This document shows positions 43,623 through 46,284 of a stretch of 64,000 nucleotides of DNA, piece after piece. The DNA comes from an uncultured Thermoanaerobaculia bacterium (lineage in GTDB: Bacteria; Acidobacteriota; Thermoanaerobaculia; Gp7-AA8). Both the position numbers and the translations under genes were made by a program. Each line of letters starts with the position of its first letter. Within the stretch, counting starts at the first letter, position 1. The stretch spans positions 5,164-69,163 of the forward strand of contig CAZYTO010000002.1 of the NCBI GenBank assembly GCA_964650405.1, written 5' to 3'. The notes under the pieces are model-generated. The model made no database searches and was not told the DNA's origin. It saw nothing but the letters and a program-made list of their open reading frames with translations.

Positions 43623-45593
43623 ATGGCGCGGCTCGATGCCCTTCTGCTGATCGCGTACTACCTCGCCCTCGGCATCCTCGCGATCTACAGCGTTCATCGG
43701 CTCTATCTTGTCAGATTGCGCCGCACGCACGACGGGCCGCGTCCCCCGCTCGCGGAGCCCCAGACGTGGCCGTCTGTGACTGTGCAACTCCCGCTCTTCA
43801 ACGAACCGAACGTGGCCGCACGCCTCATCGACGCCGTGGCCGCGATCGACTACGCCGGACCCTTCGACATCCAGGTTCTCGACGACTCGAACGACGTCAC
43901 CACAACCATCGTCGCCGGGCGCGTCACGTTCTGGCGCGGGAAGGGGGTCGCCATCGCCCACCACCGCCGTGGAACGCGCGACGGGTACAAGGCCGGCGCC
44001 CTCGCCTACGGGCTGGCAAGGAGCGACAGCCGGCTCTTCGCCGTCTTCGACGCAGACTTCGTCCCCCCGCCGGACATCCTCACGAAGATGGTTCCGCACT
44101 TTGAGTTGACGGACGATCGCGCCGGCCGGAGTGCGCTGGATGCGGCCGGCGGTTCGGAGATGCATGCGGCTGGTCACGCAGGTGCGAGAAGGCACCGGGA
44201 GGACACCCTCTCCCACCGGGAGAGGGTCGCCGCGGAGCGCGCATCTCCATGCGCTGAATCGTCGGCAGGTCGTCAGCGCAGCGGCGGGGTGAGGGGTCAA
44301 GGCTTTCATGGGGCTTCAGGCGACGGTCGTTCCACGGCTATGTTGCGTTGGTTCAACATCGTGCGTGGCAACCGAAGGAGGCGGCCCCTCACCCCGGCAC
44401 TTTCGCGCTGGTTGCGGCGAAGTCGATTCACGGTGATCCGAATCGCGCGCTCAAGTGCCGACCCTCTCCCGCGGGGAGAGGGTGGTGCCGGTTCGCGCCA
44501 CCTGTGTCTGCTACGTTCGAGCGCCACCCGCGCCGTTTTCAGAGCAGAGGGTCGCCGCGACGCGCGTATGGCATCAGCTGTGGAGGCGGTGCCGGCTGAG
44601 AAGAACGGGAACGCCCCGCACCCCGCCCCCGCCGCGCGGCCGCCGGTAGGCATGGTGCAGGCGCGCTGGACGCACCTGAATCGCGAGCACTCGCTGCTCA
44701 CGCGGGTGCAGGCCATCTACCTCGATGCGCACTTCACCGTCGAGTCGGCGGCGCGCAACTTCGGAGGGCGGTTCTTCAATTTCAACGGAACGGCCGGCAT
44801 CTGGCGGCGTGAGGCCATCGACGACGCCGGCGGGTGGTCGGCGTCGACGCTGACGGAGGACCTTGACCTGTCGTACCGCGCCCAGCTCGCCGGATGGAGG
44901 TTCGTCTTCCTTCCCGACGTCGAAGTGCTGGCCGAGTTGCCTGAGGCACTGAACGGGTTTCAGGAGCAACAGCACCGCTGGGCCAAGGGCTCGATCCAGA
45001 CAGCGCGCAAGCTCCTCCCGCGCATCCTCGGCGGGACCCAGCCGGCGCGCGTCAAGGCGGAGGCCTTCTTCCACCTGACGAACAACTCGGCGTACCTGCT
45101 CACGCTCGTCCTGGCACTGCTCATTGTGCCCGCCATCGTCGTCCGGCAGCGCCTGGGCATCCTCTGGACGATGTCGATCGACGTCGTACTCTTCTTCGCA
45201 TCGACCGGCTCGGTGCTCCGCTTCTACATCGAAGGACAGCGCCGCGCCGGGCGCACGCGGCCGACCGCGCGCGAGCTTCTGGCGGTGATCCCCATCGGCA
45301 TCGGGATCTCCATCCGCAACTCCGCGGCGGTCATCGAGGGCCTGTTCGAGCGGGGTGGCCACTTCCGGCGAACGCCGAAGAGCGGCGACCGCGGGCGGGC
45401 CGTACCGGAGGGGCGGCCGCGCCTTCCCATTGCCGAGCTCGTTCTTGCCTCATTCTTCGTCACCGCCTTCACGGCGTTTGCCGGCGCCCGCCAGTGGATC
45501 GCGTTGCCGTTCCTCATGCTCTTCACCGGCGGCTTTCTGTACGTCGCCGCTGCCGGGCTCATCGAGCGCTTCACATTCCAGACACGAATGTGA
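43623..45593 (+). CDS. family-2 processive glycosyltransferase (cellulose-synthase-like) carrying a large in-frame insertion
   Basis: QLPLFNE, VLDDSND, FDADF and QEQQHRWAKG (QxxRW) motifs; about 181 extra codons between HFE and VGMVQARW. Confidence 0.75.
   Translation: MARLDALLLIAYYLALGILAIYSVHRLYLVRLRRTHDGPRPPLAEPQTWPSVTVQLPLFNEPNVAARLIDAVAAIDYAGPFDIQVLDDSNDVTTTIVAGRVTFWRGKGVAIAHHRRGTRDGYKAGALAYGLARSDSRLFAVFDADFVPPPDILTKMVPHFELTDDRAGRSALDAAGGSEMHAAGHAGARRHREDTLSHRERVAAERASPCAESSAGRQRSGGVRGQGFHGASGDGRSTAMLRWFNIVRGNRRRRPLTPALSRWLRRSRFTVIRIARSSADPLPRGEGGAGSRHLCLLRSSATRAVFRAEGRRDARMASAVEAVPAEKNGNAPHPAPAARPPVGMVQARWTHLNREHSLLTRVQAIYLDAHFTVESAARNFGGRFFNFNGTAGIWRREAIDDAGGWSASTLTEDLDLSYRAQLAGWRFVFLPDVEVLAELPEALNGFQEQQHRWAKGSIQTARKLLPRILGGTQPARVKAEAFFHLTNNSAYLLTLVLALLIVPAIVVRQRLGILWTMSIDVVLFFASTGSVLRFYIEGQRRAGRTRPTARELLAVIPIGIGISIRNSAAVIEGLFERGGHFRRTPKSGDRGRAVPEGRPRLPIAELVLASFFVTAFTAFAGARQWIALPFLMLFTGGFLYVAAAGLIERFTFQTRM
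44103..44645. repeat. palindrome-rich insertion (REP/MITE-like) inside the GT2 reading frame
   Basis: CCCTCTCCC-N3-GGGAGAGGG hairpins at 44206-44226 and 44462-44482; GGGGTGAGGGG (44286-44296) / CCCCTCACCCC (44385-44395); direct repeat AGAGGGTCGCCGCG near 44221 and 44547. Confidence 0.55.
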
Positions 45594-45636: not shown

Positions 45637-46284
45637 GTGGTCATGCACCGCCAAAACCTCGGCGACATGCTCCTCGCCGCCAACCTCATCGACGAGGTCC
45701 AGATGCAGATCGCCCTCGTCGAGCAGAAGGAGACCGGCAAGCGCTTCGGCTCGACCCTGGTCGACCTGCAGTTCATCGACGAGAACGTGCTGGCGGCCTT
45801 CCTCTCCAAGCAGATCGACGTTCCCTGCATCAGCCTTCTGCGCATCGACATCCCGAAGAAGGTGCAGCGCAAGTTCACGCGCGAGCTGGCCGTGGCCTGT
45901 CAGGCCATCCCGGTGCGCATCGACGACGGAGGCCGCCTCGAAGTGGCCATGGTCGATCCGACGGACATCGAGATCCTCACCCGGATGGAGGGTCTCGTCT
46001 CGATGACGGTCGTGCCGCTCATCGCCCCGGAAAGCTCGATCATGGCCATGATCGAGAAGTTCTATCCGGAAGAGATCGACGGCGACGACACCAATGCCGC
46101 CCGCCGCCAGGCCGATCCGGGAAAGCAGTCCGTGCCGGCCGATCCGATCTTCTGGGACATCATCGAGGAGCTGGACAGCGCTGATCTGGACCGGCGCCTC
46201 ACCCGCATCGAGCAGAGCCTCGATCGGATCTGGACCCTGCTGGAGAAGGTCCTGCGCACGCTGGAGATGCCCGAGCGCCGCTGA
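45637..46284 (+). CDS. stand-alone MshEN/GspE-N-terminal-domain protein (c-di-GMP-binding motif type)
   Basis: Two 24-residue motifs NLGDMLLAANLIDEVQMQIALVEQ and RFGSTLVDLQFIDENVLAAFLSKQ with a 5-residue spacer; GTG 45637 or ATG 45643. Confidence 0.7.
   Translation: MVMHRQNLGDMLLAANLIDEVQMQIALVEQKETGKRFGSTLVDLQFIDENVLAAFLSKQIDVPCISLLRIDIPKKVQRKFTRELAVACQAIPVRIDDGGRLEVAMVDPTDIEILTRMEGLVSMTVVPLIAPESSIMAMIEKFYPEEIDGDDTNAARRQADPGKQSVPADPIFWDIIEELDSADLDRRLTRIEQSLDRIWTLLEKVLRTLEMPERR

Follow-up and report, generated by a model that had tools for sequence, protein, structure and literature searches.

A long-loop variant of the BoxC palindromic repeat appears to lie in frame within a BcsA-like glycosyltransferase gene of an uncultured Thermoanaerobaculia bacterium

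Introduction

The subject of this study is a gene for a processive glycosyltransferase of family 2 (GT2) in the genome of an uncultured Thermoanaerobaculia bacterium, and a palindromic repeat that interrupts the catalytic domain. The gene occupies positions 43623-45593 on the plus strand of a 64,000-nucleotide (nt) stretch of DNA (GenBank assembly GCA_964650405.1, contig CAZYTO010000002.1, positions 5,164 to 69,163), which is referred to throughout as the window. The preliminary description of this DNA took a segment of 543 bp within the gene (44103-44645) for an in-frame, palindrome-rich insertion. Our analyses show that the extra segment is real, but that the part common to other copies in the genome is confined to 387 nt (44166-44552), and this part is best classified as a lineage-specific, long-loop variant of the intrastrand triplex motif repeat known as BoxC, PIT (potential intrastrand triplex) or TMECO. 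We consider it probable, with a confidence of roughly 0.7, that the locus represents a real insertion that has been filtered by selection and would be translated in frame with its host gene, in the manner of the Rickettsia palindromic elements (RPEs). What is new is the structural variant; the BoxC repeat itself and the in-frame insertion of palindromic repeats, as with RPEs, are already known.

The course of events that we propose is as follows. A 387-nt non-autonomous repeat, composed of two inverted units of ~95 nt with short flanks, would have inserted into the part of a BcsA-like gene that encodes the cytosolic GT-A domain, and there into the only loop that varies in length among orthologues, between the helix that follows the DxD motif and the VGMVQARW strand. 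With the frame kept and no stop codon introduced, the gene would be read through, and the product would be a synthase bearing an additional, disordered loop of 129 residues, rich in Arg, Ala and Gly, on an otherwise normal fold. In a family of repeats that is otherwise extragenic, only an insertion that leaves a needed gene working would be expected to persist.

Results

The host gene encodes a BcsA-like synthase with an expanded loop

The open reading frame (ORF) specifies 656 amino acids (aa) and stays open across the whole of 44103-44645, and the Pfam matches to GT2 families fall into two stretches, residues 54-162 and 338-515, with no match between them; both results bear out the preliminary description in placing an extra in-frame segment of 543 nt, or 181 codons, inside the catalytic domain. 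The N-terminal half (43623-44102, plus strand) encodes a transmembrane helix and the GT-A strands with the DDS and DAD (DxD) motifs, and the C-terminal half (44646-45593, plus strand) encodes the VGMVQARW strand, the TED and QQHRW (QxxRW) motifs and further transmembrane helices. In an alignment of the protein with its orthologues (88 sequences), D87 and D88, D143-A-D145, T411-E412-D413 and Q449-Q-H-R-W453 are invariant. NCBIfam models give partial similarity, below their cut-offs, to PgaC, cellulose synthase and NodC. A model produced with AlphaFold2 from the same alignment has a predicted local distance difference test score above 90 for residues 1-160 and 340-656 and of ~30 for the insert, with a predicted template modelling score of 0.75, and the insert is accordingly predicted to loop out of the host fold. 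The best Foldseek matches of this model are the BcsA structures 4P00 and 4HG6 (E 1e-13 to 1e-15), the sequence profile of the protein matches BcsA (4HG6 and 5EJ1), and profile alignment places the insert at the short 'EDPD' turn of BcsA. The protein thus has the D, DxD, TED and QxxRW motifs and the GT-A fold joined to transmembrane helices that characterise the membrane-integrated processive synthases of the BcsA type (4HG6, 4P00, 5EJ1). Unlike BcsA, to which it is only ~14% identical, it has no PilZ domain, a protein with an MshEN domain being encoded separately downstream instead, and no polymer product is assigned to it.

Related synthases were said to have a much shorter spacing at this position, and this proved correct. 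Between the invariant anchors P158 and G343 there are 184 residues in the window protein, against 6-7 in 76 of the 88 sequences, 9-24 in nine others and 38-39 in P0002 and P0003, the closest relatives (~88% identical outside the loop); the next longest spacing is therefore 39, and the loop between the post-DxD helix and VGMVQARW is expanded in 12 of 88 orthologues overall. The 120 best relatives, out of thousands retrieved from a search of 5.8 billion proteins, are 422-537 aa long, a length of 656 aa occurring in the window protein only, and in a scan of metagenome contigs confirmed by tblastn the matches at 80 loci span at most ~1530 nt. Orthologues sharing a conserved linker of similar size would have removed the grounds for an insertion; there are none among the 88 aligned proteins, the 120 best matches or the 80 metagenomic loci, and among all sequences searched the insert is evidently private to this metagenome-assembled genome (MAG). 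Its translation is of low complexity and rich in Arg, Ala and Gly, as first described, with 18% R, 17% A, 11% G, 9% S and a net charge of +17 (for a stretch of 182 residues counted with V342).

Short GC-rich insertions are also present in the loop from MVPHF to VGMVQARW of two more distant orthologues. The loop DNA of P0047 (locus L212) begins with CCCCTCACCCGGCC, a remnant corresponding to the third block of BoxC, and that of P0007 (locus L213) contains a perfect 11-bp hairpin with four more pairs beyond a 2-nt bulge. Given these contents and the expansion of the loop in 12 of 88 orthologues, this region seems to be a place where insertions land recurrently or are tolerated.

The preliminary description also raised the possibility that the two halves act as a split enzyme, the second being restarted at an ATG near 44651 and the products assembling non-covalently. 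An in-frame ATG does exist, albeit at 44652-44654, where it encodes M344. This methionine is invariant in all 88 orthologues, however, and is hence not a new start codon; moreover, no stop precedes it, the insert has neither a promoter-like site nor a terminator-like site on the plus strand, and the sequence before the codon (...GGTAGGC ATG) offers no spaced Shine-Dalgarno motif. Separate production of the halves is hardly to be entertained on this evidence.

A 387-nt composite repeat probably divides a native variable linker

The genome searched for copies of the segment was the window's own assembly (G000), which comprises 5.6 Mb in 445 contigs and is 80% complete. BLAST of the 543 nt against it returned 115 matches, and their coverage profile exposes two sharply bounded cores, 44204-44296 and 44385-44484, each of which is covered by ~65-100 other alignments. 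Outside the cores coverage is lower, extending to 44166 and 44555, and falls to zero beyond. Fourteen long copies align to the gene's copy from ~44166-44183 to 44552, and the right end of these composites (...CAGAGCAGAGGGT|) is sharp in seven copies; a pattern search found no common left end, the left boundary being variable. The inserted composite, on the plus strand, is accordingly taken as 44166-44552, that is, 387 nt or 129 codons, made up of a left extension, unit A, a spacer, unit B and a right extension.

The remainder of the 543 nt behaves differently. The left piece (ELTDDRAGRSALDAAGGSEMH, 44103-44165, plus strand) and the right piece (RRDARMASAVEAVPAEKNGNAPHPAPAARPP, 44553-44645, plus strand) have no significant other copy in the genome when searched alone, none being found for the latter beyond ~44556. 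The left piece reads TTG ACG GAC GAT in frame with ACG ACG GAC GAT in the linker of the closest orthologous contig (L021), sharing its T-D-D codons, and the right piece is similar in length to the linkers of P0002 and P0003, which have 34-35 residues. Codon composition also distinguishes the parts. The GC content at codon positions 1, 2 and 3 is 0.69/0.46/0.86 in the N-terminal half and 0.66/0.48/0.88 in the C-terminal half, whereas it is flat in the repeat block (0.67/0.69/0.65), which argues that the insert is not native coding sequence. In the left and right pieces the third-position GC content is 0.76 and 0.84; a rounded tally of 43/52 for the two together gives P ~0.006 against the repeat, the exact count being 42/52 and P somewhat larger. 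Our reading is that a native, variable linker of ~52 residues has probably been split by an insertion of 387 nt. At the junctions a three-way DNA alignment with MAFFT misplaced the left flank and pairwise global alignment gave fuzzy results, because the linker itself is hypervariable.

That the segment is instead excised as an intron or intein, or constitutes a lineage-specific functional domain, is barely credible. The segment adds a whole number of codons and the RNA is strongly structured, as such a reading would allow. Yet Rfam models applied to 43800-44950 (E up to 1) gave chance-level matches only (radC, E = 0.18; P10, E = 0.46); residues 163-337 match no Pfam domain, Hint/intein or other; and the junction E161...P341|V342 lacks both the Cys/Ser/Thr and the His-Asn of an intein. 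A native domain is contradicted by the missing codon-position signal, by the lack of a homologous linker in any orthologue and by the presence of the same DNA at 68 non-coding clusters.

The insert belongs to a dispersed, otherwise extragenic family

An iterated nhmmer model identifies 110 units of ~96 nt in the assembly, in 69 clusters on 59 contigs, with 34 units assigned to an A type and 66 to a B type, mostly arranged as inverted pairs in which A is followed by an inverted B. The absence of any other copy would have spoken against a mobile element, and with ~110 units in its own genome this objection falls away. Sixty-eight of the 69 clusters are extragenic, the cluster in the GT2 gene being the only one with coding-like sequence on both sides in a single open frame; ten more clusters have coding flanks on the same strand, but these sit between distinct genes (for example, DnaJ/pyrophosphatase and MacB/HlyD). 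A candidate for a second intragenic copy, on contig C1, was rejected, the open frame there running antisense in the gap between two genes of the minus strand.

The identity of units to their nearest neighbour has a median of 0.91 and is 0.90-0.91 for the units of the GT2 gene, and the gene's copy as a whole is 80% identical to the best other composite. By these values the family is evidently not young, nor the product of a fresh burst. Elsewhere its distribution is narrow: among the foreign hairpin loci listed, full-length long-loop units occur in one other Thermoanaerobaculia MAG only (L031), and a search of 40 related genomes yielded no units, a single 45-nt hairpin match excepted.

These identities also bear on the suspicion that the assembler threaded a repeat into the gene through shared repeat k-mers. 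The fragmentation of the MAG into 445 contigs, and a P1 hairpin of 26 nt that is exactly common to many copies, lend it some plausibility. Against this, two independent false joins would be needed, leaving and then re-entering the same gene in frame; an identity of 80% to the best composite, and of 90-91% at unit level, marks the gene's copy as distinct and not as a duplicate of another locus; and the locus lies mid-way in a contig of 69.5 kb. We regard an artefact as very improbable.

Each unit combines an invariant hairpin with a covarying one

The palindromes listed in the preliminary description are all present. CCCTCTCCC-ACC-GGGAGAGGG lies at 44206-44226 and CCCTCTCCC-GCG-GGGAGAGGG at 44462-44482, GGGGTGAGGGG (44286-44296) is opposed by CCCCTCACCCC (44385-44395), GCGCAT-CTCC-ATGCGC spans 44239-44254, and AGAGGGTCGCCGCG is directly repeated at 44221 and 44546. 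The units follow a common plan, in which each opens with an invariant 10-11-bp hairpin, P1 (CACCCTCTCCC-NNN-GGGAGAGGGT), and ends with the block GGGGTGAGGGG, with a second stem-loop, P2, between the two. Unit A (44204-44296, plus strand; nhmmer model 1-102, E = 4e-16) is of the A type and includes P1 at 44205-44227, the base of the P2 stem at 44228-44233/44281-44286 and the third block at 44286-44296, as defined by the consensus structure of 34 copies; its nearest copy is 90% identical. Unit B (44385-44484, minus strand; nhmmer model 1-102, E = 8e-21) is of the B type, with CCCCTCACCCC at one end and P1 at 44461-44483, and is 91% identical to its nearest copy. The spacer between the inverted units (44297-44384, no strand assigned) is common to ~20 copies by coverage and alignment.

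The 34 A-type copies are almost uniform at the base of the P2 stem (CGCCGC/GCGGCG). Applied to mixed A and B units, or to B units alone, RNAalifold recovered only P1, and the B-type P2 was obtained from mutual information. Among the 66 B-type copies the three pairs of columns with the highest mutual information that are able to base-pair all belong to the P2 stem: 29-86 (CG 29, AU 16, UA 10), 28-87 (CG 52, UA 4) and 31-84 (UA 31, CG 29, UG 6), these counts including related copies and hence not representing independent events. Such compensatory changes indicate selection on the hairpin, be it as DNA or as RNA. Folded as RNA, the composite can adopt one long imperfect hairpin of -222 kcal/mol (z = -5.6 against shuffles). 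The apex of P2 carries a conserved TGAATC(A/G) in nearly all A- and B-type copies, though the surrounding stem varies, and this word could be a candidate protein-binding site.

The family is a long-loop variant of BoxC/PIT/TMECO

BoxC/PIT/TMECO repeats, which have been recognised since the 1990s and in hundreds of bacteria, have to our knowledge no accepted function or mode of spread. They are characterised by three blocks on one strand, and all three are found in the window: a pyrimidine block CCCTCTCCC, its complement GGGAGAGGG and the mirror purine block GGGTGAGGG, at 44206-44214, 44218-44226 and 44286-44296 in unit A and likewise, on the minus strand, in unit B. Block for block they are the same sequences as Holder et al. 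2015 (PMC4666352) give in their Table 1, and they follow in the same order, namely CCCTCTCCC, a short loop, GGGAGAGGG, TCG... and GGGTGAGGG (compare E. coli TMECO no. 20, CCCTCTCCCTGTGGGAGAGGGTCGGGGTGAGGGC); the TCG after the second block is common to the window units and E. coli TMECO nos. 12 and 20. The published repeats have been found in more than 260 genomes and show no association with known mobile elements; in E. coli, TMECO are described as 'always located intergenically', and A and B subtypes occur in inverted A+B pairs (PMC4666352, PMC5100583). The same repeats are the HPGQ motifs of Kaplan et al. 2016 (PMC5100583), and have also been read as a switch between G-quadruplex and hairpin. 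The family in the present genome is likewise dispersed, almost always intergenic and organised in inverted doublets of A and B subtypes.

The window family departs from the published repeats in three respects. Firstly, the covarying P2 hairpin occupies the second loop, where the published repeats have 3 nt. Of the 75 complete motifs identified in the genome, 74 have a second loop of 58-68 nt and one match extends over 107 nt, and short-loop copies are absent; the first loop, at 3 nt, agrees with the short loops of published definitions (1-6 nt in ITxF and 0-10 nt in Hoyne et al.), but the second is too long for them. Secondly, the composites of this genome have conserved extensions of ~40 and ~70 nt. 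Thirdly, the GT2 copy lies in frame within a gene, as opposed to the strictly intergenic location reported for E. coli. The suggestion that the insert is an element of the REP/MITE type (repetitive extragenic palindrome or miniature inverted-repeat transposable element) holds insofar as it is a dispersed palindromic repeat; it is specifically a long-loop BoxC/PIT/TMECO, and not a generic REP or a demonstrated MITE.

With one genome examined per species, the exact P1 hairpin of 26 nt (CACCCTCTCCC-NNN-GGGAGAGGGTCG) was found at more than 100 loci in many phyla; hosts among the matches listed include Enterobacter, Pseudomonas, Cupriavidus, Alphaproteobacteria, Planctomycetota, Terriglobia, Nitrospirota, Chloroflexota, bacteria of the Candidate Phyla Radiation and others. 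At most of these foreign loci GGGTGAGGG follows directly after the hairpin, and in many Alphaproteobacteria a mini-hairpin of 11 nt stands between. Arranged by the second loop, these loci (L028-L107) and the window form a graded series, with 3 nt in Enterobacteria, Pseudomonas and Planctomycetes, a mini-hairpin of 11-13 nt in Alphaproteobacteria and in a Thermoanaerobaculia MAG (L070), and 58-68 nt in the window genome.

The host gene looks intact outside the insert

Leaving the insert aside, the GT2 gene is unremarkable. Its N-terminal part (480 nt) and C-terminal part (945 nt) are exactly as long as in the orthologous contigs L021 and L022, with no indels, and the ratio of nonsynonymous to synonymous substitution rates (dN/dS) against these two is 0.18-0.20 for the N-terminal and ~0.10 for the C-terminal part, the same values being obtained between L021 and L022. 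At 163 near-invariant columns of the alignment there is one private change, which is typical of relatives; the rate is not accelerated relative to outgroups, and the DDS, DAD, TED and QQHRW motifs are all kept. By these measures the gene is without any sign of decay, and both halves are under purifying selection. The identity of the units to their nearest relatives (0.90-0.91) suggests that the insertion has probably been present for a while without decay of the gene; if that divergence arose after the insertion, a gene evolving neutrally should by now have picked up indels or stops.

The principal rival is that the gene is dead or dying, having been inactivated by a recent insertion, and that its frame is open by chance, the GC content being high and the element happening to lack stops in this frame. 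Only 2% of the sequences obtained by mononucleotide shuffling of the 543 nt are free of stops in a given frame, but the appropriate comparison is with the family itself, and here the same frame is free of stops in six of the seven closest composite copies; an open frame is not rare, and an open, in-frame insertion, with the right orientation and frame and a length divisible by three, has a chance of ~1 in 18. The insertion is, furthermore, known from a single MAG, so that it could be recent or a minority allele, and had it happened very recently, dN/dS would not yet register any decay. To these points, which weigh against a tolerated and translated insertion, two more should be added: the hypervariable linker allows the junctions to be placed only to within a few bases, too coarsely for a target duplication to be claimed or rejected, and an mRNA duplex of -222 kcal/mol might lower expression or attract RNase III. 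On the other side, when the chance of ~1 in 18 is multiplied by that of landing in the one variable loop, which is a few percent of the gene, the probability of a neutral origin falls well under 1%; the flanks are free of indels and stops, with dN/dS unchanged and one singleton at the conserved columns; and a divergence of ~9% from the nearest relatives of the element speaks against a very recent event. We judge a dead gene unlikely. The in-frame state is explained most simply as the result of a filter imposed by selection, and we infer that translation continues through the insert and that the enzyme still works.

Discussion

Comparison with other repeats that enter genes

The likeness to RPEs that the preliminary description proposed is borne out in that the insertion is in frame and free of stops, the orthologues are empty at this site and the gene is not decayed; as a description of the family it fails, 68 of 69 clusters being extragenic. 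RPEs are repeats of ~150 bp, with nearly half of their copies located within ORFs, where they specify a conserved peptide (PMC10969869). As there, a palindromic repeat stands in frame in an enzymatic gene and would, if translated as we suppose, add a peptide where the fold can accommodate it (PMC10969869). Unlike RPEs, the window family has 1 of 69 clusters in a gene, and the insert is 387 nt long without a codon-position signal; the resemblance drawn here is one of arrangement.

If this interpretation is correct, the locus is instructive in several ways. One filled site and many empty orthologous sites supply a before-and-after case for how a pan-bacterial repeat moves, and the replacement of a 3-nt loop by a 60-nt covarying hairpin shows which parts of the motif are constrained. 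A conserved enzyme carrying 129 extra residues in a defined loop, apparently with tolerance, would be useful in engineering BcsA-like synthases, and bears on the question of how selfish repeats can seed disordered protein segments. For annotation, the locus is a warning against labelling the 656-aa product a pseudogene or a protein with a novel domain without a check.

Candidate modes of movement

With REP sequences and bacterial interspersed mosaic elements accompanied by REP-associated tyrosine transposases (RAYTs), and with MITEs, the family described here has in common that its hairpins are short and GC-rich, that its clusters alternate in orientation and lie outside genes, and that its inverted arms are long. 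Three genes for Y1 transposases (IS200/RAYT-like) are present in the assembly, at C186:1471-1791, C61:14111-14434 and C5:54009-54332; the protein from C186 is RAYT-like, scoring 74.8 bits against NF047646 (REP-associated tyrosine transposase; cut-off 80), and the match on C61 contains an internal TAG. In this genome none of the three adjoins a unit, in contrast to REP systems, in which the RAYT gene is flanked by the repeats. For the composite in the GT2 gene, inverted arms of ~95 nt are present, and no target-site duplication is visible at 44165/44166 or 44552/44553, where the flanking linker is hypervariable. Distant inverted units on C153 and C266 were considered as the ends of an autonomous parent and rejected, since they enclose ordinary genes only and no transposase.

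A second association is with DUF559. One of the two DUF559 matches in the assembly lies 290 nt from a unit, on contig C58, and is apparently frameshifted. Among 80 foreign hairpin loci, a DUF559 homologue occurs within 106-270 nt of the hairpin in three (L054, L091 and L047). The arrangement unit-DUF559-unit is the same as that of the composite in the GT2 gene, in which A and an inverted B enclose a spacer, and this is compatible, as a weak indication, with the gene's copy being a nuclease-less derivative of a DUF559 cassette. A DUF559 nuclease and a RAYT-like enzyme are candidates for moving the element. A more far-reaching proposal would have BoxC/triplex-motif repeats as active mobile DNA in Acidobacteriota, taken up here as protein in the form of a strongly basic, disordered loop of 129 residues, or else would see in the hairpin- or triplex-prone DNA an unstable, excisable switch of exopolysaccharide synthesis, with movement possibly effected by DUF559; we think either version quite unlikely.

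The loci concerned differ in detail. In L054:184-740 (Beijerinckiaceae) an ORF for a DUF559 protein, a Vsr-like nuclease, lies between two P1 hairpins in a cassette of ~500 nt, and the units were confirmed to face outwards; L091:296-810 (Methylocystis) has a DUF559 ORF between two P1 hairpins at the same spacing, and in L047 the homologue is 270 nt from the hairpin. On C58 (21149-21848, equivalent to L210:1116-1815) a stretch of ~95 nt, built of imperfect direct repeats of CTTCGTGCGACC, separates an A-type unit from the DUF559 gene, and the N-terminal motif of this gene (RARYMRKNATQSEA) is out of frame with the remainder.

The neighbouring gene

Immediately 3' of the GT2 gene lies the stand-alone gene for the MshEN-domain protein, of 215 aa, at 45637-46284 in the window and at L021:2560-3207 in the closest orthologous contig. 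Its position next to the GT2 gene in both suggests that the pairing is conserved.

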